Virus record (IMG/VR): IMGVR_UViG_3300037478_000621
Location: 2,403 to 66,402 of that record
Origin: a virus
Taxonomy: Duplodnaviria > Caudoviricetes
Direction: 5' to 3' (one strand)
Length of the DNA: 64,000 nucleotides
Below the pieces are notes generated by a model that did not search any database, was not told where the DNA came from, and saw nothing but the letters and a program-made list of their open reading frames with translations. Of this stretch, positions 1,649-32,795 are shown piece after piece. The translations under genes were made by a program, and so were the position numbers. Numbering within the stretch: position 1 is the first letter of the stretch; each line of letters starts with the position of its first letter.

Positions 1649-3300
1649 TAGAAGCCTCCCCGGAGTGCGGACGCGGCCTGGCTCGGCGACCGATGGAGCC
1701 GCTCCATGGCCTCGGTGAAGTCGTGGGCGAAGCGGTCGGGGTCATTCGAGGCGATCTCGATATGGATGGTCGCCTTGAGGTCGGGCGGCTTGGCGATGTG
1801 GCGGTCGCTCTCCTCCGAGCGCGGGCCGAATGGCCCCATGACTTGCTGGAGCGTCGCCATCCCCATCGCCTGCGCCCAGTTGCCACCAAGGGGGGCGAGC
1901 TTCTGGTACCACTTGAGCGAGAGCTTCTCCATCTCGAGGATGCCGCGGTTATCGTTCCGAGCCTGGAGAGCCAGGTTCGCGGCGACGAACGCCTTCGCCC
2001 CGGCAAAGAGGCTGTGCTCGTTGTGGACCTTCTGGCCGAGGTGAGACCTGGCATCAGGAAAGAACTTATTGATGCTGCCGACCTTATTCAGATTCTTGTC
2101 GGCGAGGCCTTGGTTTCGAAGCTCCGAGAGCATCGTCATCGCCGCGCCGAGTCCACCGCCGAGGACGCCGGTCGAGAGCCGGTCGAGCGATCGCCGGTTG
2201 ACGCCCTTGTTGATCTCCTTGTCCTGGTCGGAGTCGAACTTGGCGGCGACGAACTTGGCGGCGACGTAGGTGACGCCGGCTACGTTGCCCAGGAGGCGCG
2301 CCGGGCCGCCGGCGGTGCCGCCGAATGAACCCATGACACCGCTGATGGCCTTGACGCCCTTGAACGCCAGGAGCGCCTTGGCCATCGTCATCAGCAGGTC
2401 TTTGTGACCACCGATCCAGGACGCCACCCCCTTCACGGCGTTGAAGCCGGTCACCAGGGCGTTGCTGAAGCTCTTGGCCCACCGCTCGATCTTCTGCGGG
2501 TGCTTGTCGATCCAGTCGTTCCATCGCTTCACCTCGGCGGTGAGCTTCTTCATGAGCGGTAGGCCGACCTTGCCCAGCGCCATCTGGATGTTGTCCTCGA
2601 GGGTCGAGGTCACCCCGGCGAAGCTCTGCTCCTGAGCCTTCGCCATGGCCTGGATGGGCTTGGAAGTGAGCGCCTTCATCAAGACCTTGGCGCGCTTGTC
2701 GGCCGAGAGCTTGTTGAACTTGTCTGTGCTGAACCCCATCGGCTCGAGGAGCGCCCGGGCGAAGCGGTCACGCTTGGCCAGGTTGCCCATGAGGGCCGCC
2801 TCGATGTCACGCGCCGCGAACTCCGCCTGCATCCCGAAGGAACGGGCGGCGACCACAGCGCCCACGGTCATGTCTTCGAGCCCCTTCATCCCGACGCCGG
2901 CGGCCGTGACGGGCCGGACGATCAGCGAGGCCATGTCCACCATGTCTTTGGTGGTCCCGACCGAGGCCTTGGCGCGCAGCTGGAGCTTGCCGACCAGGTC
3001 GTTGGCCTCGCGAAGGTTCTCGTTGAACGTTCCGCCGCGGTTCAGCTGCATGAGCCCGGCCATCTGGATCCGGGCCTGTTCCATGCCGCTGTTGAAATCG
3101 ACGAGGTGCTTCTTTCCGGCGCGGAACAAGAGACCGCCGCCGATGAGGGCGCCGACGCGCATCAAGGTGCTGCGCAGGCCCCTGGCCTTGCGGTCGGCTC
3201 GGTCGGCCGCACCACCGATCGCATCGACACCCCGCTTGGCGTTCCCCTTCACGCCATAGCGGATGTCGATGTCGTAGACGGTGGTGAGGTTGGCGGCCAT
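1648..3300 (-). CDS. Tail tape measure protein
   Basis: 550 aa, Ala/Gly/Lys-rich and helical; 'QSFAGVTSTLEDN' tape-measure-like segment; follows tube and chaperone genes. Confidence 0.85.
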   Translation of the reverse strand: MAANLTTVYDIDIRYGVKGNAKRGVDAIGGAADRADRKARGLRSTLMRVGALIGGGLLFRAGKKHLVDFNSGMEQARIQMAGLMQLNRGGTFNENLREANDLVGKLQLRAKASVGTTKDMVDMASLIVRPVTAAGVGMKGLEDMTVGAVVAARSFGMQAEFAARDIEAALMGNLAKRDRFARALLEPMGFSTDKFNKLSADKRAKVLMKALTSKPIQAMAKAQEQSFAGVTSTLEDNIQMALGKVGLPLMKKLTAEVKRWNDWIDKHPQKIERWAKSFSNALVTGFNAVKGVASWIGGHKDLLMTMAKALLAFKGVKAISGVMGSFGGTAGGPARLLGNVAGVTYVAAKFVAAKFDSDQDKEINKGVNRRSLDRLSTGVLGGGLGAAMTMLSELRNQGLADKNLNKVGSINKFFPDARSHLGQKVHNEHSLFAGAKAFVAANLALQARNDNRGILEMEKLSLKWYQKLAPLGGNWAQAMGMATLQQVMGPFGPRSEESDRHIAKPPDLKATIHIEIASNDPDRFAHDFTEAMERLHRSPSQAASALRGGF

Positions 3301-3504
3301 TTACTTCTGGGCGTCGTTGTGGCGCTCGATCATCTCCTCGGTTTTCTCGATGAGCAGCTCACGCTGCCGTCGAGTCAAACCGAACCACTCGCTCAGCGAG
3401 ACCCCTCCTTTGAGGTGCCAGGAGAGCCAGGCGAATTCGCGGTAGAGGCTTCGCTCGAGCTCGGCGCCGGCCCCGCGTCGCCGAACGCCTCCTTGAGAAA
3501 ATCC
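3301..3504 (-). CDS. Tail assembly chaperone frameshift extension (GT-like, -1 frame)
   Basis: The -1 frame relative to 3393..3803 is open from just after an in-frame TGA near 3511 to TAA at 3301 (…ELERSLYREFAWLSWHLKGGVSLSEWFGLTRRQRELLIEKTEEMIERHNDAQK*). It has no own start codon and abuts the tape-measure ATG. Confidence 0.7.
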   Translation of the reverse strand, partial: GFSQGGVRRRGAGAELERSLYREFAWLSWHLKGGVSLSEWFGLTRRQRELLIEKTEEMIERHNDAQK

Positions 3505-3803
3505 GCGAGGTCACCGGCCTTGGCGTTGCAGAGCCGGCGGAAGGCGGCCCGGACGAAGTCCCGGGTGACTGAGTCCCAGCCGCGAAAGCCCTGGTAGGGC
3601 CGCTGGACTGGCTTGTCATCGACCTCCACGATCGCCTCGCAGATCATCTGCTCCTCGAGGACGATGCCGGGCGCGTCCTCGGCCCGCTCGGCCGCGGCGA
3701 GTTCGTCGTCGCCGATGATCCGCCGCAGCTTGAAACTGTCGACGGCGAGGTCCTGACCGTACCTATCGCGGAGGCTGCCCTCCGGCGGAAAACGTTTCTC
3801 CAT
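3393..3803 (-). CDS. Tail assembly chaperone (G-like)
   Basis: 136 aa between tail tube and tape measure, with an overlapping -1 frame ORF. Confidence 0.75.
   Translation of the reverse strand: MEKRFPPEGSLRDRYGQDLAVDSFKLRRIIGDDELAAAERAEDAPGIVLEEQMICEAIVEVDDKPVQRPYQGFRGWDSVTRDFVRAAFRRLCNAKAGDLADFLKEAFGDAGPAPSSSEASTANSPGSPGTSKEGSR
3498..3504 (-). other. Putative -1 ribosomal frameshift heptamer G GAT TTT
   Basis: Minus-strand GGATTTT is correctly phased in the chaperone ORF and lies just inside the open -1 frame. Confidence 0.55.
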
Positions 3804-4274: not shown

Positions 4275-5750
4275 CTACTGCTCGGTGACGTTGACGGTGG
4301 TGCCGATTTCACTGACGAGGACCACGAACAGCATCTTGGGGATCGTCTTGATCCGGTAGAGCGTGGCTTCCTTGCCGGCGTCCCGGGTGGCCTGGGTGTT
4401 GAGGGACTCGGTGTCGATCTGGTACTGCGGCACGTTGCTGTCGTTCTTTGCGACGTAGCGTTCCTGGCGGGCCAGGCCGTCGAGGAAGGCACCGACCGAG
4501 GACTTGTTGGCGATGCGCCGGCTCGGGGTGTTGGGCTCCTTGACGCTCGTCTCGAGGAACAGCGCAATCGAGGCGATGAGGAAGTCGTTGACGCGCCGCT
4601 GGTCCACTTCGTAGGCGGGGTCCAGCGTCACGGCGTCAACGAAGCTGAAGCCGCGGTCGCGCTCCAGTCCGCAGATGCGCGCGTCGCGGAGGTCGTCGTA
4701 GTCCTCGGGCGCAAGGCTCTCGAAGGTAAGTTCGGCGATGCCGGTGAGGAACTGCTTGTTGTCGGCGACGCCAGGATGCACGTCGGCGTCGGTCTGGCTG
4801 AGGATGGAGGCCATCCACGACGTGGGCTCGACGGTGATGAGGGTCGCCGTCTGGGGGTCCAGGGTCTTCGGGTGATTGAAGCAGTAGACCAGCCGCTTGT
4901 TCGGCGTCATTCCGGTGGACTCGGTGACCGCGTCGGACTTCGTCTCGGTCTCGTCGTCCGGGCAGATGAGCCACAGCGCCTTGGGGTCGGCCGCCGACTT
5001 GGTCTCGACGGCGCTCTTGACGGCGGTCGTGCTCTGGCCGGCCACGAACTTGATGCCGGCGTCCTTGGTGGCCGCCAGGATGTCGAGCGGCCCGGCGGCC
5101 GCCGTGAAGTCCGTGTCATCGAGAGTCCCGTCCGCACCGGTGGTGAGCGCCACGTCGGCGACGTTCTCCGGGCGCCCGTCGGCCAGCTTGATGAGCGTGA
5201 CGAGCCTGCCATCGTCGTCGCCGACCACTGCCGCGAGGTTGTCGTCGTCCTCCCCGTTGACGTTGAGGTTGCGGTAGCGGTCGGTGCGATTCCGCCACTT
5301 GACGACCAGGTCGAAGTGGTCCTCATCGCCATCGGTCGCGTCCACAACCGAGACGGTCACACCGTCGCCCCAGGTACCGACGCTCGAGGCGTCCACCTGG
5401 ACGATATCGACGGGGTCGCCGTCTTCGAGGTTGACGGTGGATGCCGCAGCGGCCGAGGCCGCGGCGCGCACCGCGTAGAACTTGCCGAAGCGCTTGTTGA
5501 GCAGCGCCTTCCAGAGCTCCGAGGCGATGGGCCCGCCCTCGAGGATGTCCCGGCCGCCGAAGACCTCGACGAACCGGCCCGGCGAGGTGATCTCGACGCG
5601 GCGGTTGACCGGACCGCGGACGGCCGTCCCGGCCATGGCGACGACGTTGTTTTGGACGCCCTCGACGATGGCGGGCGCCGCGCGCTCCTGGATGTAGAGA
5701 CCGGCGGCGCCAATCTGGGCATCGGACGTGATGAATCGCGGCTCGGGCAT
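4275..5750 (-). CDS. Contractile tail sheath protein
   Basis: 491 aa; N-terminal 'GLYIQE...IVEGVQNNVVAMAGTAVRGPVN' and C-terminal 'RRVNDFL' sheath-type motifs. Confidence 0.9.
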   Translation of the reverse strand: MPEPRFITSDAQIGAAGLYIQERAAPAIVEGVQNNVVAMAGTAVRGPVNRRVEITSPGRFVEVFGGRDILEGGPIASELWKALLNKRFGKFYAVRAAASAAAASTVNLEDGDPVDIVQVDASSVGTWGDGVTVSVVDATDGDEDHFDLVVKWRNRTDRYRNLNVNGEDDDNLAAVVGDDDGRLVTLIKLADGRPENVADVALTTGADGTLDDTDFTAAAGPLDILAATKDAGIKFVAGQSTTAVKSAVETKSAADPKALWLICPDDETETKSDAVTESTGMTPNKRLVYCFNHPKTLDPQTATLITVEPTSWMASILSQTDADVHPGVADNKQFLTGIAELTFESLAPEDYDDLRDARICGLERDRGFSFVDAVTLDPAYEVDQRRVNDFLIASIALFLETSVKEPNTPSRRIANKSSVGAFLDGLARQERYVAKNDSNVPQYQIDTESLNTQATRDAGKEATLYRIKTIPKMLFVVLVSEIGTTVNVTEQ

Positions 5751-7472: not shown

Positions 7473-7784
7473 TCAGGCGATGCCCGGGCCGCTGCCGGCG
7501 GCGCGGCCGTTGACCGAGCCGCCGGTGTGGGCGGTGACGTTCAGCCGCATCTGCTGGGCGCGCATGCCCAGCGGGCCCGACTTCGAGGCGGTGATGCCGT
7601 CGAAGTCCGGATGCGCGACCCAAGTGGTGCCGCCGTCGAAGCTGAGCTCGACGGATGCGGTCGCCGTGTCGGTGATCTCGACGAGAACGCCGACGTCATC
7701 GACGTTGCTGATATCGACGGGATCTCCTTCGAGGACTTCCTCGATGTCGCCGAGATCGAAGGTGACGAGCTTTCTGAGCGCCAT
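7473..7784 (-). CDS. Small beta-sandwich virion-associated protein (hypothetical)
   Basis: 103 aa with good RBS (GAGGAAAG); 'VELSFDGGTTWV…MRLNVTAHTGGSV'. Confidence 0.55.
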   Translation of the reverse strand: MALRKLVTFDLGDIEEVLEGDPVDISNVDDVGVLVEITDTATASVELSFDGGTTWVAHPDFDGITASKSGPLGMRAQQMRLNVTAHTGGSVNGRAAGSGPGIA

Positions 7785-7846
7785 GGGTCTTTCCTCTCGT
7801 TGGGTTCAAATGCCGCCCCAGCACAGGGACCAGGGCGGCAAAGCTT

Positions 7847-8242: not shown

Positions 8243-8670
8243 CCCGCGGCCTCGAGGGCTTCGACCAGCTGGCGCTTGGTCATGCCCGCCGGGTCGATAT
8301 CGCGCTCGACAGCGAGGTCAACGAGCTCGGACTTGCGCAGGTTGATCAGGTCGTCGGGCGACGGGATGTCGGTGAGCGGCTCTTCGGGCTCCTCGATTTC
8401 GACCTTCCTGCCGGCCTTCTCGAGGTAGGCCTGCGCCCGCGGATCGGTGATCGGCAGAACGCGACCCTTGGTCTTCCGCTCGATGAAGCTGGGCCGCGTG
8501 TCGCCCTGCGGGTCGCCGATGCGGGTGAGGTACCCGATGCCCAGGGCGACCTTGGCGCCCGGGGGCAACTCGTAGTCGATGGGCTCGGAATCGCCCACGG
8601 TCCCGATCTCCCAGCGGGCGACCTCGCGAGAGACGTTGATCGCGTAGCCCTTGGTTCGTTTCTTCGCCAT
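8239..8670 (-). CDS. Hypothetical protein with C-terminal HeH/Rho-N-like helical motif
   Basis: C-terminus LINLRKSELVDLAVERDIDPAGMTKRQLVEAL; common position right after the major capsid gene. Confidence 0.6.
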   Translation of the reverse strand: MAKKRTKGYAINVSREVARWEIGTVGDSEPIDYELPPGAKVALGIGYLTRIGDPQGDTRPSFIERKTKGRVLPITDPRAQAYLEKAGRKVEIEEPEEPLTDIPSPDDLINLRKSELVDLAVERDIDPAGMTKRQLVEALEAAG

Positions 8671-8701
8671 GCTTTCCCCTGTGAGTGGTTGGCGGCATCC
8701 C

Positions 8702-9745
8702 TTACGGGATGAGGTCGGTGAGGCGGCCGTGCGCGTTGCAGCGATCCGAGGTGAGTTGGGTGTGGACGATCATCTGGAACGGGGTCATGTCGCCGGCGCG
8801 GCCGAGCTCGATGACGCGAGCCATGAGGCCCGGGCGGTCCGGGATGGTTCCGGCCTGCTCCTGCGGCGTCCCGGCGATCGGGATCGAGGCGATGGCCCGT
8901 CCCTTCAGGACCTCGGGATCCGGCAGCTGCTCGAGGACGAGGTGATCGTCATCGACGAACACCATCTCCTTGGCGGTGCAGTCCTTGTCCTTGAAGATCG
9001 GAATGCCGTTGATCTCGAGCGCGCGCCAGCCACCGTCGAGCTTGATGGTCTCGCCGCGGATAGTGACCTCCTGGAGGTAGCGCTTCTCGGGCGCGACCAG
9101 GCGGGCGTAGGCGCTCCAGAGGGTCGGCGTGGTGAGGATGTAGTGCGGCTGGCGGCCGCTGGCCACGTACATGGCCTCGAGGTGATCCTCGATGACGCCG
9201 ACGGTGAGGTTGCGATCAACGGCGCCGTTATCGCTCACCGTCGCGGCCCACTGGACGTGACTCGAGCGATCGATCCCGGCGTAGGACCCCGAGTCGGACA
9301 TCGGGCCGGTCCCGGAGCTCACGCCGTGAAGCTGCTGCGGGCTGGTCCCGCCGGTGCCGCTGTAGAGCGCCTTGTTGAGCTTGCTCGCGGTGCGTCCGCC
9401 GGCGTCGATGAGCTTCTTGATGTAGAGCCGAGCCAGCTCAGTCGGCTCGCCAGCGGCGATCGACTCGGCCAGGCCGGTGATGCGGAAGGCATCGCCGTAG
9501 ATGGCCCAGGCCAGGATCGCCATCAGCTCGGTGTCGTTGTTCCAGGTCGAGACGGCCTCGCCGTCGTCGAAGTTCTGGCCGTCGGCGGTGCCGACGCTGA
9601 CATCGAACGCGCAGTTCTTGCCCGAGCCGAACTGCTTGTTGATCAGGTTGAGGAAGACGGTCGCGCGGTTCGGCTGGCGAACCAGCTTCCGGCGAACTCG
9701 CTGCTCGAGGGCATCAGACAGGGCGGCAACATCGGAATCGGCCAC
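8702..9745 (-). CDS. Major capsid protein (HK97 fold)
   Basis: 347 aa after the scaffold; '[12 protein letters not shown]', '[18 protein letters not shown]' capsid-type motifs; strong RBS AGGAG. Confidence 0.88.
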
Positions 9746-26988: not shown

Positions 26989-27402
26989 ATGGACGAAATC
27001 AGCATCCCGCCGAAGACGGCGGCCATCCTCGTAATCGGTGCGACCGTGATCATCGGCCTGGTGGTCTGGGGCGTCGCCAGCGACGACAGCAGACCGGCAG
27101 CCGGAAGCGAGCGAGCCGAGCCCAGTGCGGCCGCGGCGCCGAAGCCCCGAGCCCCGGCCGACTTCCACGGCCACATCAAGGCGACCTATCTCGACGCGTG
27201 CAGCTTCAACGTCACCTCGGCATCGGAGAACCGAGTAACGACCGCGGCCAGCATCGTCGCCAACAAGCAGCGCGGCCACGACTTCAACCTCTGGAATCTC
27301 GGCTTGACCTTTCGCCGAGAGGGTGCGGCGTGGACGTGCCAAGGGATGGACGACGAGAACACCGGGGCCTGCGGACTCGCCCTGATCCACTGCGAGCGGT
27401 GA
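26989..27402 (+). CDS. Moron: N-terminally membrane-anchored protein
   Basis: TM helix 'AAILVIGATVIIGLVVWGVA'; opposite strand; TAGGCT-N6-ATG start. Confidence 0.7.
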   Translation: MDEISIPPKTAAILVIGATVIIGLVVWGVASDDSRPAAGSERAEPSAAAAPKPRAPADFHGHIKATYLDACSFNVTSASENRVTTAASIVANKQRGHDFNLWNLGLTFRREGAAWTCQGMDDENTGACGLALIHCER

Positions 27403-27506
27403 CGAGCAAATTGCGGGGCGCGACGGTGTTTCATGAGCCCAATCGCGAAGACCGGACCGGGATCTCCCCGGCCACCATGCCGCCGCGCCCCGCGACATCA
27501 AAGCCA

Positions 27507-27749
27507 CTAGCTCGCCTTCCGGGCCTGGCTCCGCTTTTTGGCCGGCCGCGGCAGTGGGCCGAAGAGAAGAGTTTGGCGCGAGATGCCGAGGGCGCTGGAG
27601 ATCGCCTCTTCGTTCTCGGTCTTAGGCTCGTAGACCCCGGTCTCCCAGCTGGAGACCGCCTGCGCGGTGACTCCAGCCAGATCGCCAAGCTCGCTCTGTG
27701 TGAGGCCGCGATTCTCCCGGAATCGGCGGATGCGGAGACCTAGAGACAT
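27507..27749 (-). CDS. Cro-like XRE HTH protein
   Basis: 'LRIRRFRENRGLTQSELGDLAGVTAQAVSSWETG…P'; 80 aa, divergent from the putative repressor across an operator region. Confidence 0.85.
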   Translation of the reverse strand: MSLGLRIRRFRENRGLTQSELGDLAGVTAQAVSSWETGVYEPKTENEEAISSALGISRQTLLFGPLPRPAKKRSQARKAS

Positions 27750-27781
27750 GGATCCCTCGGTACCAAATCTCACCACTGAGG

Positions 27782-27796
27782 TCAAGTCTAACTTGA
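27782..27796. promoter_or_regulatory. Operator 1: TCAAGT-CTA-ACTTGA
   Basis: Perfect 6-3-6 palindrome overlapping a leftward TTGACC (-35) for cro. Confidence 0.8.
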
Positions 27797-27835
27797 GGAT
27801 TGACCCAGTCGGACATGCCGCGGGGCGCGATACAC

Positions 27836-27850
27836 TCAAGCCTGGCTTGA
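27836..27850. promoter_or_regulatory. Operator 2: TCAAGC-CTG-GCTTGA
   Basis: Perfect palindrome with the same spacing, between TACACT (-10, 27831-36) and the repressor ATG. Confidence 0.75.
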
Positions 27851-28296
27851 TGCGCAGGAAGATAGATATCCGAAAGTTCCCGAAGGACTACAAGTTCCTG
27901 GTGACCGACCGCGCCGTTGAGTTGATCAAGGCGAAAGCGAAGAGAGAACGCTGGGGAGACACAGAGCTCTCACGCAAAGCGAAGGAGGCAGCTCTCCTTT
28001 GGGGCCGCAACCTTGTTGACCTGTCGAAGTTGAGCAGTACAGCTGTAACCAACGTCCTCGACAGGGATAAGCCTGATCCGGTGATGCAGAGCAAGCTGAT
28101 CCCCTACCTCCTCCTGGGCGTGGGGGAGGAGTTGACTTTTGACCTAGTACTCCCCTGTGAACCGGGGGAGACGGCGCTGATTGTTGACGAAGCAGACGCC
28201 TGGGCCTTCGAGGCGTTCTCTGCCTATCCTGAGCTCAGAGGCTTGCTGACTACCTACAAGCAACGCCTCCACGACCGCGGCGAAGAATCTCGCTAG
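27850..28296 (+). CDS. Putative immunity repressor (atypical, no S24 domain recognised)
   Basis: Divergent from cro across the operators; possible HTH 'DTELSRKA…SSTAVTNVL'; assigned mainly by position. Confidence 0.5.
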   Translation: MRRKIDIRKFPKDYKFLVTDRAVELIKAKAKRERWGDTELSRKAKEAALLWGRNLVDLSKLSSTAVTNVLDRDKPDPVMQSKLIPYLLLGVGEELTFDLVLPCEPGETALIVDEADAWAFEAFSAYPELRGLLTTYKQRLHDRGEESR

Positions 28297-28553
28297 CGGC
28301 TCCGGGCGGCTAGGCGCGCGGCCGCCGTCACATCGCCAGTGCCGCGGGCCCTGCCTGAGCGCTGTCCCTCGGCCCGAGTTATCGCGCTCTCGATTTCCTC
28401 GAGGGCGCACTCCATATCCCGCCTCGCCGCGGACAGGTCCGCGACGCGGCCTCGACATGTTCGCCAGAGCTTCTCTGCCTCTGTGATGTAAGCGACCGCA
28501 CTCACAAGCCGCTCGAGAGCTCGCCACTCCGGCCCGTCTTTATCCCTACCCAT
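28293..28553 (-). CDS. Hypothetical helical protein in the immunity region
   Basis: MGRDKDGPEWRALERLVSAVAY…; divergent from the early rightward promoter. Confidence 0.45.
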   Translation of the reverse strand: MGRDKDGPEWRALERLVSAVAYITEAEKLWRTCRGRVADLSAARRDMECALEEIESAITRAEGQRSGRARGTGDVTAAARLAARSR

Positions 28554-28614
28554 TGAACCCAATGTGAGGGAGAGCCACCCGGAGGGCCATCAGGATTTCT
28601 CCCGGACATTTTGC

Positions 28615-28654
28615 TCAAGTTTGACTTGACATGACTCAAGTTGAACTTTAGAGT
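28615..28654 (+). promoter_or_regulatory. Early rightward promoter TTGACA-N17-TAGAGT overlapped by operators 3 (TCAAGT-TTG-ACTTGA, 28615-29) and 4 (TCAAGT-TGA-ACTTTA, 28636-50)
   Basis: Consensus -35 at 28626-31, -10 at 28649-54; ATG at 28661. Confidence 0.85.
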
Positions 28655-28660
28655 GGGTCC

Positions 28661-28918
28661 ATGGTCAACGAGCACACCGGGAAGTCGCCCGAGGGCGCCC
28701 CCCACGTCACCTGCCCGCTCACGGGCCGGAGCGTCCTCCGTAATTCGGAGATCGGCCTCGCCATCCGGCTTGGCCACCACGCCGACCTGCCTGCCCTCTG
28801 GCGTCGTTACGACTACGCCGGAGCTCGGCAGCGGGCCTGCACCGACCGGCAGTACGTCGCGGACGTGCTGGCCGCGCACGCCGCCCGCAATGGGCGCGAG
28901 TACCGGAGGGCGGTCTAG
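28661..28918 (+). CDS. First early gene, hypothetical
   Basis: 85 aa, leaderless start after the promoter. Confidence 0.6.
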   Translation: MVNEHTGKSPEGAPHVTCPLTGRSVLRNSEIGLAIRLGHHADLPALWRRYDYAGARQRACTDRQYVADVLAAHAARNGREYRRAV

Positions 28919-29130
28919 TGGCCGGCCTCCATCCCTTCGTTGTCATCGCTGGCGGCCTGAACGCTCGCGCCCGCGAGCTTGCCAACGAGCGACCGGCTGC
29001 CGAGGCGCCCGAGCCGCGTTGCTCGTCGTGCCGTGACCGCGGTTATCACGTCGCCGACCGGCTCATCGACGGCCGCTGGCAGACCGTCGAGGTCGCGTGC
29101 CTCGCCTGCACCGGACCGGAGGCCGCGTAG
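28918..29130 (+). CDS. Zn-finger hypothetical
   Basis: CSSCRDRG…CLAC. Confidence 0.6.
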   Translation: MAGLHPFVVIAGGLNARARELANERPAAEAPEPRCSSCRDRGYHVADRLIDGRWQTVEVACLACTGPEAA

Positions 29131-29132
29131 TC

Positions 29133-29432
29133 ATGGCCAAGGTCACCGTCGAGATCGACACCAACACGGTCGAGCTGCTCGCCGACTTCGTCTACTGGCT
29201 CCGCCGCCAGGACCACTACACCGGTCGCGATGCGGCGAAGCACAAGCAGGCCAGCGAGGCCGTGCGCACCGCTCGAGCCGACGCTTCAACCGCTGTCGCC
29301 GCCGACCTGGCCGCCAACATTCAGGCCGTTCTCGACGAGCGCGCCGTCGCCGGCAAGGTCAAGGACGATCCCGGCGTCGATGCCGAGGGCTGGCCCGGCG
29401 TCTGGCGCTGTCGCCCGCGGAGGGCTGTCTAG
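29133..29432 (+). CDS. Hypothetical protein
   Basis: ATG 29133 with RBS GGAGG. Confidence 0.6.
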   Translation: MAKVTVEIDTNTVELLADFVYWLRRQDHYTGRDAAKHKQASEAVRTARADASTAVAADLAANIQAVLDERAVAGKVKDDPGVDAEGWPGVWRCRPRRAV

Positions 29433-29636
29433 ATGGCCCAGCACGCCTGCACCGAATGCGGCGCCATCCGCTCGTCCGACCAGCTGGTCTACTGCGTCCA
29501 CTGCGACGGGCACACGTGCCTCGGGCCCGACGAGATCACCTACGTCCCCTACGGTGACGACATCGCCGCCGACCTGGTGCCGACGATCAGCGAGTGCGAG
29601 GGCCGCCACGAAGCTTCGCACGAGGTGGTCTCGTGA
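29433..29636 (+). CDS. Zn-finger hypothetical
   Basis: CTEC…CVHC…C. Confidence 0.6.
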   Translation: MAQHACTECGAIRSSDQLVYCVHCDGHTCLGPDEITYVPYGDDIAADLVPTISECEGRHEASHEVVS

Positions 29637-29845
29637 TCGGCATCGGCTACCGCGACTCGGCGCTTCGCCGCGATGTCGCCAATCGCACCGCCTCGCATAT
29701 CCGCGTCTCCATTTTGCCCGCGGACATCGGCGCCGGCTGGACCGCCACCGCGCTCATCAACGACACCGTCCGCTCGAGGTGGTGCGCCACGAAGGGTGAC
29801 GCTCGCGCGACGGTGACTGCCTGGCTCGCGGAGGTAGCGCGATGA
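29633..29845 (+). CDS. Hypothetical protein
   Basis: GTGA coupling. Confidence 0.5.
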   Translation: MIGIGYRDSALRRDVANRTASHIRVSILPADIGAGWTATALINDTVRSRWCATKGDARATVTAWLAEVAR

Positions 29846-30171
29846 CGCTCCGCGGCGCCATCCGCTCGATCGTGGAATCAGTCCGCGTCTGCGATGTCCG
29901 GCTCCACCTCCGCCTCGGAGTTCCCGAAGATCACAGCCGTGCTGCGTTCGAGATTCTCGTCGAGCTCGGCGCCGAGGTTCGTCGAGCGGTCTACTCCGGC
30001 GCCAACGGCGAGCCCCCATTCGTAATTGAAGTGGCCGAACTCCCCATCGGCCTCGGCCATGTCGCTGAGCAATGGTCGCGCCCGGCTACCGCCGACGAGA
30101 TTGCGCAGCTCGAGGGACCCAAAGTTTTCGAGCTGCCGCACTCCAGCGCTCGTGCTCGGAGGCTGCCGTGA
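29842..30171 (+). CDS. Hypothetical protein
   Basis: 109 aa, ATGA coupling with RBS GGAGG. Confidence 0.55.
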   Translation: MTLRGAIRSIVESVRVCDVRLHLRLGVPEDHSRAAFEILVELGAEVRRAVYSGANGEPPFVIEVAELPIGLGHVAEQWSRPATADEIAQLEGPKVFELPHSSARARRLP

Positions 30172-30177
30172 TGTTCA

Positions 30178-30580
30178 GAGACCCCGCGACCACCCTTGCT
30201 GTCCTGGGAGGCCTCGTCGGCGACGACGGGGCGAGAGACTACTGCCGAGGTCTAGGATTCGGCTCAACGGGCCCAGGTGCTTCGGAGCCTCGAGGACGCT
30301 CGAGGAGTTCCGACGCGGAGGCACCCAGCATCGGTGACGAGCTCGTCTCGGGGTCTCGTTTTGTTGTCGATTCGGAACGCGTCGGCATGGTGGGCGGGGA
30401 GATCCCGTCACGCGCCCTCGATGAGGTCGGTGAAACACCGCCGCGTTCCGATCTTTTTGCCGGCGGCCCGAGCATCTCTCCCCAGGTGTTGCTCGTGACC
30501 AGGGTCGCCGGCATCTCTCTTACCCGACCGGGCACGGCTTCCCCTGGAACCCCCGCGACTCGTCGTGCCCGGTCGGCTTT
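30178..30580 (+). ncRNA. Candidate structured non-coding RNA / attenuator region
   Basis: Long stems 30178-90/30345-57, 30369-85/30438-53 and 30524-36/30564-76 (perfect 13 bp); a GNRA hairpin (30212-31) and a C(UUCG)G loop; U-rich tails after the stems. Confidence 0.5.
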
Positions 30581-30595
30581 CTTCGAGACCAGGCC

Positions 30596-31798
30596 ATGAG
30601 ACGTCTCAGCACCTCACGCGCCCGCGTTTTCCGGCGCTGCCCGCGCGAGCACCAGCTGCGCTACGAGAAGCGCCTCGAGTCGCTCTCCGACCGCGCCGCG
30701 GCTCGCTTTGGGACGCTGTTCCACAACGGTCGCGATGCCTGGTTCGCGGCTCACGCCACCGGCCTGCGCGGCGAGGAGCAGCTCGTCGCGGCGCTCGCCG
30801 AGATCAAGGCCACCGCCACCGATGAAACCGACGAGTACGAGCTCGCGAAGGCGCTCGCGCTGATGGTCGGCTACCACGAGCGCTGGGGCGACGAGCCGAT
30901 GAGGGTCCTCGGCACTGAGATGGAATTCGAGGCGCCCTTGCTCAACCCGGACTCTGGCCGCCCGTCTCGGACCTGGCTCTTTGCCGGCAAGGTCGATGGC
31001 GTCGTCCAAGAGATCGAGGAGTTCGACGGCCTGGCCTGGCTCAACGAGCTGAAGACCTCCACCGAGGACGTCTCGCCGGGCTCGACCTACTGGGAACGTC
31101 TGCTCGTTGACGACCAGGTGAGCAACTACCACATCGGGGCGGCGGCCCTCGGCCTCGAGGTCGCCGGGTGCATCTACGACGTCGCGAAGCGCCCGGCGCT
31201 GAAGCCCAAGCAGGCAACTCCAGAGGAGTCGCGCAATTACACCAAGGGCAAGGCATGCAAACTGTGCAAGCCGCGCCCGGCGCCGGTCAAACACTGCGCG
31301 GTCTGCGCCGGTTCGGGCTTCGAGGAAGCGCCCCGGCTCTACGCGAACCAGCGCGCCGAGGACGAAACGCCAGGCGAGTACTACCAGCGCATCCTCGAAG
31401 ACATCGCCGCGAACCCGGAGGGCTACCTCCGACGCCACAAGGTCGTCCGGCTGGCCGACGAAGTCATCGACGCCCGGCGCGATCTCTGGCGCACCTCGCG
31501 CGAGATCCGCGAGACCGAACTGGCGGGCTACGCCCCGAAGAATCCAAGCGCATGCACGCGCTTCAATTCTCGATGCGAGTACTTCCCGATCTGCTCGGGA
31601 ACGGCGAGCGCAAGCGACCCGACACTGTACCGCATCCGTGAGACCGAGCTCCCAGAGCTCTCCACCCCGACGAAGGAGAAGTCGACAAATGGCACAGACC
31701 AAACCGAAGCCCCATCCCCAGCCCCAAACCCAGGCGAAGCCTTCGCCGACGAGCGCTCCGTCAACGGCGCCGACCGAGACCAAGAAGCCCTCTTCTAG
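30596..31798 (+). CDS. PD-(D/E)XK (Cas4-like) recombination exonuclease
   Basis: 'C' at the N-terminus, 'FGTLFH', 'GKVDG…LNELKT', 'QVSNY', C-terminal 'CTRFNSRCEYFPIC'. Confidence 0.85.
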   Translation: MRRLSTSRARVFRRCPREHQLRYEKRLESLSDRAAARFGTLFHNGRDAWFAAHATGLRGEEQLVAALAEIKATATDETDEYELAKALALMVGYHERWGDEPMRVLGTEMEFEAPLLNPDSGRPSRTWLFAGKVDGVVQEIEEFDGLAWLNELKTSTEDVSPGSTYWERLLVDDQVSNYHIGAAALGLEVAGCIYDVAKRPALKPKQATPEESRNYTKGKACKLCKPRPAPVKHCAVCAGSGFEEAPRLYANQRAEDETPGEYYQRILEDIAANPEGYLRRHKVVRLADEVIDARRDLWRTSREIRETELAGYAPKNPSACTRFNSRCEYFPICSGTASASDPTLYRIRETELPELSTPTKEKSTNGTDQTEAPSPAPNPGEAFADERSVNGADRDQEALF

Positions 31799-32795
31799 GC
31801 TCGGCATGGTCCGGCGCGGTCGGATTCCTTCGCCACTCCGCGCCCTGATCTACGGCGTGGAGGGGGTCGGGAAAAGTACTCTCGCCGCCGCCTCGCCAAA
31901 CCCGATCTTCTTCGACATCGAGGGTGGCTCCGACCACCTCGACGCCGTTCGCTACGTCTGGCGCGAGAACGGCAACGGCCATATCCCCCGGTCGATGGCC
32001 GACGTCTACGACGCCATCCAGGATCTCGGTCGCAGCGATCACGACTACAAGACGCTCGTCATCGACACCATCGATGCCCTCGAGCCGCTCGTCTGGGACT
32101 CGGTCTGCAAGGCGTACTCCGGCAAGAAGGGCGCGCTCAATAAGAACGGCAAGAAGATCGCCACGATCGAAGAGTTCGGCTGGGGCAAGGGTTTCAACGT
32201 GGCTGTCGATGAGTGGCGTCGTTTCTGCTCGATGCTCGACCGGCTTCGCGCTCACCGCGACATGGCCATCATCCTGCTCGGCCACTGCCACGTCCGCACC
32301 TACAAGAACCCGATCGATGACGACTACGATCGCTTCTACCTGCGCCTCCACGACAAGGGCGCCGGGATGGTCAAGGAGTGGGCGGACGTCGTCGGGTTCT
32401 GTAGCTTCGAGGAGGTTGCCGACCGCCTCGACGGCGAGCACCGAGCTCGCGGCGTCTCGACCGGCCGCCGGCTGATCCATCTCACCCGCACCGCGGCATG
32501 GGACGCCAAGAGTCGCATCGCCCTGCCCGACCAGGTCGAGATCGACCTCGAGCACCCATGGCAGCCGTTCGCCGAGGCGCTCGACCTTGCCCGCGCCGCC
32601 AGCCCCGAATACCTGCGCCAGCTCATCGAGGGCGAGTTGGCGCGCCTCGACGACCCCGACACCCGCACCCGCGTCGAAACCGCCGTGGCAGGCGCCGGCG
32701 ACGACGCCGGGACCCTCTCCAAATTCTTGGTGCGCCTCAAGCAGATGGCCACCGCAACCGAGACCGAGACGCAAGAGGAGTCTACCGATGAGTAA
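31689..32795 (+). CDS. Sak4-like (AAA_24) ssDNA annealing ATPase
   Basis: 'LIYGVEGVGKST' Walker A, 'LVIDTIDALE' Walker B, 'AWDAKSR'; ATG 31689 with RBS AAGGAG. Confidence 0.85.
   Translation: MAQTKPKPHPQPQTQAKPSPTSAPSTAPTETKKPSSRLGMVRRGRIPSPLRALIYGVEGVGKSTLAAASPNPIFFDIEGGSDHLDAVRYVWRENGNGHIPRSMADVYDAIQDLGRSDHDYKTLVIDTIDALEPLVWDSVCKAYSGKKGALNKNGKKIATIEEFGWGKGFNVAVDEWRRFCSMLDRLRAHRDMAIILLGHCHVRTYKNPIDDDYDRFYLRLHDKGAGMVKEWADVVGFCSFEEVADRLDGEHRARGVSTGRRLIHLTRTAAWDAKSRIALPDQVEIDLEHPWQPFAEALDLARAASPEYLRQLIEGELARLDDPDTRTRVETAVAGAGDDAGTLSKFLVRLKQMATATETETQEESTDE

Follow-up and report, generated by a model that had tools for sequence, protein, structure and literature searches.

A conserved three-way-junction RNA motif in the early-operon spacer of a phage contig, with relatives in phages, Actinomycetota and Thaumarchaeota

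Our study concerns 64 kb (the window, to which all positions refer) of a 66.4-kb IMG/VR viral contig with a GC content of 67 % (IMGVR_UViG_3300037478_000621), in which structural genes run leftward at ~0.6–24.7 kb, a divergent immunity region lies at 27.5–28.7 kb and a long rightward operon begins at 28661. This operon opens with small open reading frames (ORFs) of no known family. Six of these immediate-early ORFs precede a gap, and a ~19-kb recombination/modification operon follows it, the first gene of which encodes a PD-(D/E)XK exonuclease (30596–31798, + strand; Pfam PDDEXK_1, E=6e-14; phrog_1218, E=2e-29). The gap itself is an untranslated intercistronic spacer on the + strand (30172–30595), between the ORF at 29842–30171 and the exonuclease gene. 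Our analysis identified within it a motif of ~80 nt that is, with high probability, a real conserved element acting at the RNA level, and that recurs beside a cro-like gene of the same phage, in other phages, in bacteria and in archaea.

The spacer is a sense-strand untranslated RNA consisting of four independently folding modules. As a whole (30172–30598, 427 nt) it folds on the + strand with −207.6 kcal/mol and a z-score of −2.79, none of 100 dinucleotide shuffles being as good, whereas the minus strand reaches a z-score of only −1.35; the four modules taken singly range from −2.33 to −4.53 on the + strand. A preliminary description of this DNA, made from its letters alone, had proposed a highly structured non-coding segment with several long stems, and all of these were present at the positions given. 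Domain 1 (D1, 30178–30357, + strand) is a multi-branch fold whose closing stem GAGACCCCG.GAC/GUC.CGGGGUCUC (30178–90/30345–57) has 12 of 13 pairs, and it holds a hairpin with a GCGA loop (30212–31; 30212–19/30224–31, 8/8 pairs), a C(UUCG)G loop at 30280–85 and the CCUCGAG hairpin at 30288–305 (30288–94/30299–305, 7/7 pairs). Folded as 30176–30359, it has a minimum free energy (MFE) of −93.3 kcal/mol and a z-score of −2.68, with 2 of 200 shuffles as good. The second module is the conserved motif (copy A, 30372–30451; z=−2.33 on the + strand), in which the stem 30372–81/30442–51 is present with 10/10 pairs. Directly after it the sequence reads UCUUUUU (30452–30458, + strand).

The remaining two modules are GC-rich or perfect hairpins. 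Domain 3 (D3, 30458–30513, + strand) is the GC-rich hairpin GCCGGCGGCCCGAGCA.../...UGCUCG...GGGUCGCCGGC, with 6/6 pairs in the stem 30469–74/30490–95; folded as 30455–30520, its MFE is −32.5 kcal/mol (z=−4.03, 0/200 shuffles as good; minus strand z=−2.2). Domain 4 (D4, 30524–30585, + strand) is a hairpin with a 23-nt loop and a CUUUCUUCG tail, in which the 13 pairs seen earlier (30524–36/30564–76, 13/13) extend in the MFE fold to a perfect stem of 15 bp (30524–38/30562–76). Folded as 30519–30590, it has an MFE of −34.5 kcal/mol (z=−4.53, 0/200 shuffles as good; minus strand z=−2.58). D4, with its U-rich CUUUCUUC tail, lies 19 nt before the exonuclease ATG and is a candidate terminator/attenuator or 5′ stabilizer; a simple terminator scan passes over it because its loop exceeds 8 nt. 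The spacer may hold the stacked attenuators suggested earlier, with the closing helix of copy A running into UCUUUUU and D4 with its tail just ahead of the exonuclease start. No relatives of D1, D3 or D4 were detectable by blastn against INPHARED or against the loci of the motif family collected below, and these three domains appear to be lineage-specific. The proposal of one multi-domain RNA of ~400 nt was not supported in that form, as it is the 80-nt module alone that is conserved elsewhere, and a single integrated RNA is unproven.

A self-search revealed that ~80 nt of the gap recurs, inverted, 2.9 kb upstream. A covariance model of the motif (R1) scored copy A with 71.3 bits (E=3e-18) and copy B, at 27413–27493 on the minus strand, with 75.9 bits (E=1.5e-19; fold z=−3.59), and on the 64-kb window it matched these two copies only, the next best match being 12.5 bits. 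Copy B starts 13 nt past the stop codon of the cro-like gene (27507–27749, minus strand; 80 aa, XRE/Cro-type, Pfam HTH_3, E=1.3e-13) and occupies the spacer up to the convergent gene at 26989–27402. The two copies are inverted relative to each other, and each divergent transcription unit has one of them, oriented in the sense direction. They are 78 % identical, have the blocks CATGGTGGSCGGGGAGATCCCG and TGAAACACCG in common and differ by a 1-nt indel, which excludes a similarity of encoded protein. Between their outer stems of 14 bp the differences are compensatory (U-A to G-C; AA/UU to GG/CC), and in both copies the helices P1 and P2 are complementary and the core blocks (CAUGGUGG-GAGAU-UGAAACA) stand at fixed spacing. 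This two-copy layout is a feature of the window phage, as five other phage contigs carry a single copy.

The motif forms a closed three-way junction of ~80 nt, in the order P1, CAUGGUGG, P2 with a GAGAU loop, a variable P3 and (C)AUGAAACA. In copy A, P1 lies at 30372–85/30438–51, CAUGGUGG at 30386–93, P2 at 30394–98/30404–08, the GAGAU loop at 30399–403, CAC at 30409–11, the P3 region at 30412–30 and UGAAACA at 30431–37. Across the family, P1 comprises 6–17 bp of free sequence and is followed by CAUG, then by GUG-G, the 5-bp P2 with its GAGAU pentaloop and CAC, which was found in 80 of 90 members; P2 is extended by GUG/CAC pairing with a bulged purine. P3 is a variable hairpin of 13–40 nt that is nearly missing in some archaeal copies, and the 3′ part consists of (Y)CAUG, an AAACA bulge and P1′. 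The pairing of CAUG with CAUG (P1a) is conserved without covariation. The core, CAUGGUGG / CAC / (C)AUG-AAACA, is almost invariant, and the junction has ~24 near-invariant nt, a figure to be read with the fact that the pattern used to collect members fixes CATGGTGG, GAGAT and TGAAACA and thereby imposes part of the invariance seen in these blocks.

Members were gathered from several sources. The exact 21-nt core was found in five other IMG/VR contigs, where the outer stems are entirely different yet complementary. With the paired positions freed, the relaxed pattern CATGGTGG-N5-GAGAT-N20-50-TGAAACA matched 25 IMG/VR contigs; the five inner pairs covary in 24 of them and the remaining one was a chance match. 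The P2 stems seen include CCGGG/CCCGG, UGCAG/CUGCA, UACGC/GCGUA, CGCAC/GUGCG and GCGAG/CUCGU. The same pattern matched 59 contigs of GTDB genomes, in 13 of which R1 confirmed 19 matches, and at least 120 metagenomic contigs; 79 metagenomic loci were tested with R1, which gave 51 matches in 48 loci. Approximately 90 distinct members resulted, from IMG/VR phage contigs, metagenomes, Actinomycetota and one family of Thaumarchaeota, and the core persists from phages of 36 % GC to soil contigs of 73 % GC and into archaea. Archaeal matches found by the covariance model vary within the blocks, with GGUGA or GGUAG, loops of GAGAG or GAGAC, and a 6-bp P2. Among cultured phages, blastn gave no true member.

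The covariation in P1 and P2 is very strong. In an alignment of 21 sequences, 86 % of the helix cells were paired, compared to 59 % in shuffles and 30–49 % in slid controls, and 157 cells were double changes against 57 in shuffles, a number that none of 500 shuffles reached. An independent set of metagenomic members gave 87 % versus 62 % paired and 320 versus 117 double changes. To avoid circularity in the test of P2, matches were also selected by P1 alone in an alignment-free check, and 103 of these 121 matches had a perfect 5/5 P2, in 35 different stems; in pattern matches that failed P1, P2 pairing was random. Covariation across homologous loci, one of the checks named in the preliminary description, was seen for the 80-nt module, D1, D3 and D4 having no relatives in which to look for it.

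The motif acts at the RNA level, in the same orientation as the genes around it. Its helices contain 29 G·U/U·G pairs against 7 A·C/C·A; upstream neighbours share the strand of the motif in 26 cases and oppose it in 6, and for downstream neighbours the numbers are 19 and 8. The idea of a C4/CI-like antisense RNA, raised in the preliminary description, was not supported: folding, G·U wobbles and matches to the covariance model all point to the sense strand, and no promoter-like site was found in the gap on either strand. A promoter at the 5′ end of the motif was rejected for the family as well, a −10-like TANNNT preceding P1 in 13 of 79 members compared to 20 of 79 in the shifted control. Two further candidates were rejected. 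A short ORF from the conserved AUG/GUG of (C)AUGAAACA would give short, unconserved products. For a pseudoknot between the GAGAU loop and a downstream AUCUC there was no enrichment, AUCUC occurring in 10 of 82 members and the control word in 14 of 82; AUCUC lies within the GCATCTCTC repeat, which is indeed present at 30472 and 30511 as had been noticed earlier, but as a 9-mer is not significant alone, and its complementarity to the loop is no family feature.

The gap does contain an open frame of 142 codons (30171–30599), and we considered whether it is a real, atypical coding gene with translational coupling to both neighbours. The ATG of the frame shares bases with the stop codon before it (TGATG, 30169–30173), and the TGA of the frame shares bases with the exonuclease start (ATGA, 30596–30599), overlaps that we treat as chance in a sequence of 67 % GC, in which long open frames are common by chance. 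GC content at third codon positions (GC3), at least 0.8 in the flanking genes, drops to 0.55–0.75 in every frame from ~30120 to 30540; for the open frame itself it is 0.6–0.75, compared to more than 0.8 in real genes. By a codon-usage log-odds score trained on 19 long genes of the window phage, all six frames of the gap are negative, the 142/175-codon frame scoring −0.25 compared to +0.13 to +0.40 for neighbouring small genes, in agreement with the lack of the genome's codon bias remarked on earlier. Its 175-aa translation had no homologue among 5.8 billion protein clusters, so no amino-acid conservation was seen, and the ORF is missing from the proteins called for this contig in the public collection. 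In addition, part of the frame is taken up by the RNA motif; the ~90 relatives of this motif are intergenic and keep no frame, and the 1-nt indel separates copy A from copy B. Taken together, this evidence makes a coding gene extremely improbable.

The distribution of the motif is sporadic across domains, with amplification in a few genomes. Bacterial carriers are Actinomycetota (Streptomyces, Actinoplanes, Baekduia and others) and one deltaproteobacterium; a Streptomyces genome (locus L085) has three copies. Within one thaumarchaeal family, 4 of 15 genomes carry the motif, at 3–15 copies per genome, and 100 further genomes sampled from the class lacked it. One metagenome-assembled genome (MAG) of this family (G006, 1.7 Mb, locus L037) has 14–15 copies (for example L037:2239–2335, 4959–5055 and 7722–7818; also loci L230–L240). 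Six of ten copies examined there lie 90–300 nt downstream of pyrroloquinoline quinone (PQQ)-type beta-propeller genes, which themselves stand partly in tandem arrays, and the genes downstream of the copies are mutually unrelated. Several archaeal copies have a TATA-like TTATTTAG ~22 nt before P1, which implies that the motif would start the transcript. In the phage locus L185 (Ga0206106_100168, 700–2150), three cassettes of ~120 nt (TGA, motif, ~14 nt, ATG) stand between small genes, with nearly identical P1 and flanks.

Such patterns might also be produced by an element acting at the DNA level, either a strand-specific single-stranded DNA (ssDNA) hairpin or a small non-autonomous mobile element spreading into intergenic spacers, with the RNA fold incidental. 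A few genomes have multiple copies where their relatives have none, copies within a genome (L185 and the thaumarchaeal copies) have P1 and flanks in common, the copies of the window are inverted, and G·T wobbles are tolerated in ssDNA too. However, the arms are free and covary between genomes around an invariant interior, which is the reverse of a miniature inverted-repeat transposable element; the motif is oriented like the genes around it, transposase or recombinase genes are not regular neighbours and target-site duplications were not noticed. A DNA-level or mobile origin is on this account very improbable.

The motif family is apparently uncatalogued, without an Rfam counterpart. Rfam 15 gave no match on the motif in 29000–32000 at E up to 1, and on a 106-nt piece at E up to 10 the best match was Vault, with 13.6 bits against a threshold of 34. 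A search of eight diverse loci of the family, with E up to 0.1, likewise left the motif unmatched, and eleven further loci and the whole window gave nothing at the gathering threshold. The preliminary description had listed this comparison among its checks, and it was right that the segment is a structured sense-strand non-coding RNA, one part of which is now seen to be a conserved element. No name, function or cross-domain distribution of the motif was found in the literature by literal-sequence or keyword search. The catalogue of Fremin et al. 2023 (PMC10690425) lists 8,495 unnamed structured-RNA candidates; it draws on IMG/VR, as does our family, and concerns elements of this type (covarying intergenic phage RNAs), and the family may be among these candidates.

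In phage loci the motif begins a median of 14 nt past a stop codon and ends ~15 nt before the next start, typically filling the spacer. Its flanks have no shared theme: it was found between terminase and portal genes, downstream of a portal gene, upstream of a scaffold gene, between Sak4/single-stranded DNA-binding protein (SSB) and methylase/helicase genes and before an integrase region; elsewhere in the family it also follows a resolvase gene. Such unrelated flanks make a gene-specific regulator less likely and favour an autonomous module. A core kept from phages to archaea and yet indifferent to its neighbours is most simply explained by an autonomous module whose target is either the transcript or some machinery that is conserved universally. 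We favour, at a probability of about one in three (~0.35), an autonomous punctuation module for RNA processing or stability at cistron boundaries. Such a module would act on the polycistronic transcript during or after its synthesis and would set a defined, protected RNA end at the cistron boundary, either through site-specific cleavage, self- or enzyme-directed, or through a compact fold that stalls exonucleases, with the outcome that stability and translation of the flanking cistrons are uncoupled. In the window phage, copy B would part cro from whatever lies further along the leftward transcript and copy A would stand as the divide between the six small immediate-early ORFs and the ~19-kb recombination/modification operon. 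Just before the exonuclease gene, attenuation or 5′-end protection may be added by D3 and by D4 with its U-rich tail. Two loci may be cited in support of processing. In L013 the motif begins exactly at the 3′ end of a transfer RNA (tRNA) gene, tRNA-Leu, and in L018 (IMGVR_UViG_3300036651_001467) it lies 70 nt upstream of a permuted transfer-messenger RNA (tmRNA; RF04321, 114.7 bits; 3293–3768).

Several observations weigh against this reading. Adjacency to a tRNA or tmRNA was seen in only 2 of 108 loci, and a general tRNA association was rejected. Circularly permuted forms of the motif were represented by three chance matches only. No known ribozyme was found near the motif in 11 other loci or in the window, with the exception of a sub-threshold twister in L018. 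The archaeal TATA-like boxes suit a regulatory leader or small RNA better than a former of 3′ ends. A plain stabilizing hairpin needs no ~24 near-invariant nt, and the core may bind something specific. Finally, P1a, for want of covariation, is a part of the drawn structure that is not proven.

A competing explanation is that of a regulatory leader, in which the motif serves as an aptamer, and its binding of a small molecule, an ion or a widely conserved protein would control the downstream gene, in the window phage through the P1/U-run and the terminator-like D4 hairpin before the exonuclease operon. A closed three-way junction of this size with a near-invariant core is typical of aptamers, and the likeness extends to three-way-junction riboswitches such as the purine class, which also have a closing P1, two hairpin arms and a highly conserved junction. 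The copy in a Baekduia sp. MAG (L077:2721–2801) is chromosomal and lies in the leader of an extracytoplasmic function (ECF) sigma-factor gene, the archaeal boxes make the motif the 5′ end of a transcript and, in the window, the U-run and two strong hairpins stand between motif and operon. Against these, the genes downstream in phages, bacteria and archaea are without a functional theme, in contrast to riboswitches, and most copies of the motif lie between cistrons, not where an operon begins. In most phage copies only ~15 nt separate the motif from the next start, with no expression platform or other structure overlapping P1, and in the archaeon it is the upstream PQQ-type gene, not the downstream gene, that is the consistent neighbour. 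A U-tract (at least 5 U within 9 nt of the end of P1) follows only 8 of 79 members, which makes the UCUUUUU of copy A a local feature and also speaks against intrinsic termination as the role of the family. We consider a regulatory leader unlikely.

The layout of the window phage raises a further alternative, which had been suggested from the letters alone, namely a processive antitermination element analogous to put or nut, whose nascent RNA would modify the elongation complex and so allow read-through of D4 and later terminators in the two divergent transcription units. Like HK022 put, the motif would be a cis-acting structured RNA of ~70–80 nt in phage early transcripts. Each of the two divergent units has a single copy in sense orientation, and the phage has no others; copy B comes right after cro, the position of nutR/putR in lambdoid phages, and copy A follows the early promoter at a distance of ~1.7 kb and is itself followed by a terminator-like hairpin and the 19-kb operon. 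The architecture is nevertheless unlike put. HK022 put has a minor-groove triplex and is built of two neighbouring stem-loops, separated by an unpaired or bifurcation nucleotide and not enclosed by any helix; its target is the zinc-binding domain of the β′ subunit of bacterial RNA polymerase (PMC9378689). In the motif, by contrast, a covarying P1 of 6–17 bp closes the junction, and the conserved sequence is a different one. The motif is usually single-copy, as in the five other phage contigs, often lies between late genes with ~15 nt to the next start and so no room for a terminator, and no boxA-like element was seen. It also occurs on bacterial chromosomes and in archaea, and the archaeal RNA polymerase does not offer the context in which put binds in bacteria; a put-type mechanism specific to the bacterial enzyme is thus unlikely. 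The put-like antiterminator of the preliminary description is not supported, and we regard antitermination in general as quite improbable.

The CAUGGUGG-GAGAU-UGAAACA junction could be a new class of catalytic or nuclease-blocking RNA, either a small self-cleaving ribozyme or a prokaryotic roadblock resembling the exonuclease-resistant RNAs (xrRNAs), common to phages, Actinomycetota and a thaumarchaeal lineage and punctuating their polycistronic transcripts; this specific form of the proposal we hold to be unlikely. Small ribozymes (hammerhead, twister, twister-sister, pistol, hatchet and the hepatitis delta virus (HDV)-like 'theta') are of similar size (~75–100 nt), with a multi-helix junction, ~20 near-invariant nt and freely covarying stems, and share a sporadic cross-domain spread and a context-independent location in operons; the copy abutting a tRNA 3′ end adds to the likeness. 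On the other hand, the ribozyme models of Rfam gave no match, not even with E allowed up to 10, the conserved blocks differ, no pseudoknot or permuted form was detected in the motif, and catalysis is hypothetical. The hammerhead, twister and HDV topologies were rejected in a by-eye comparison, as the order of blocks and the lack of a crossing helix disagree with them. Flavivirus-type xrRNAs, stabilizing stem-loops and repetitive extragenic palindromic (REP) elements resemble the motif in being compact and on the sense strand before or between coding regions, here as a three-way junction without an expression platform. Neither in sequence nor by covariance model does the motif resemble these, the ring-forming pseudoknots of xrRNAs were not found and nuclease resistance is likewise hypothetical; REP elements, for their part, are simple palindromes with conserved arms.

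To our knowledge, there are very few classes of small structured RNA with an almost invariant core common to phages, bacteria and archaea. The known cross-domain classes (hammerhead, twister and a handful of riboswitches) proved to be catalytic or ligand-binding. With ~90 members, textbook covariation and no Rfam entry, the motif is a concrete target that can be tested at present. If it is a punctuation module, phages would be able to cut early and late operons into units of differing stability or expression without dedicated proteins, and in the window phage the motif marks the boundary of the immediate-early genes and the 19-kb operon. Were its function an ordinary one, such as a stabilizing structure, the family would still merit a curated covariance model for annotation.

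In the wider early region, a sigma70-like promoter site, TTGACA-17-TAGAGT (28626–28654, + strand), ends 6 nt before the first early ORF (ATG 28661) and is the only such site in 27300–31000, one being seen against 0.2 expected. Repeats of the TCAAG-N-CTTGA type overlap this promoter (28600–28660) and the cro-side promoter region (27775–27800), and look like operators. Downstream, the exonuclease gene is followed by a Sak4-like annealing protein (31638–32795; AAA_24, E=5.6e-39). No close relatives of the window phage were found by blastn against INPHARED or with the exonuclease protein against viral and genome contigs. The Sak4-like protein had best matches of at most 34 % identity, and the motif is absent from those loci; blastn of 26–34 kb against all collected member loci matched the motif alone. 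Copy B is closest (84 %) to the chromosomal copy of the Baekduia MAG, nearer than to copy A (78 %), and this likeness, together with a leaderless-promoter signature, hints at an actinobacterial (Thermoleophilia-like) host.

Two minor observations are added. In L018, ~5 kb from the motif, 8651–8713 gave a twister-P1-like match of 51.6 bits, under the gathering score of 67.2. In the window, the last ORF before the gap (29842–30171, + strand, 109 aa) is overlapped codon for codon by an antisense ORF (29878–30141, minus strand). The minus-strand ORF has the higher codon-usage score (0.37 versus 0.13), and its pattern of GC content at first and third codon positions (GC1/GC3) is the more gene-like of the two. 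Either strand may be the coding one; if the minus-strand ORF is a real gene, the early operon would be interrupted there. Public gene calls place the gene on the + strand, as a 109-aa or a 46-aa form, and an identical copy of the 109-aa ORF exists on one Logan contig.

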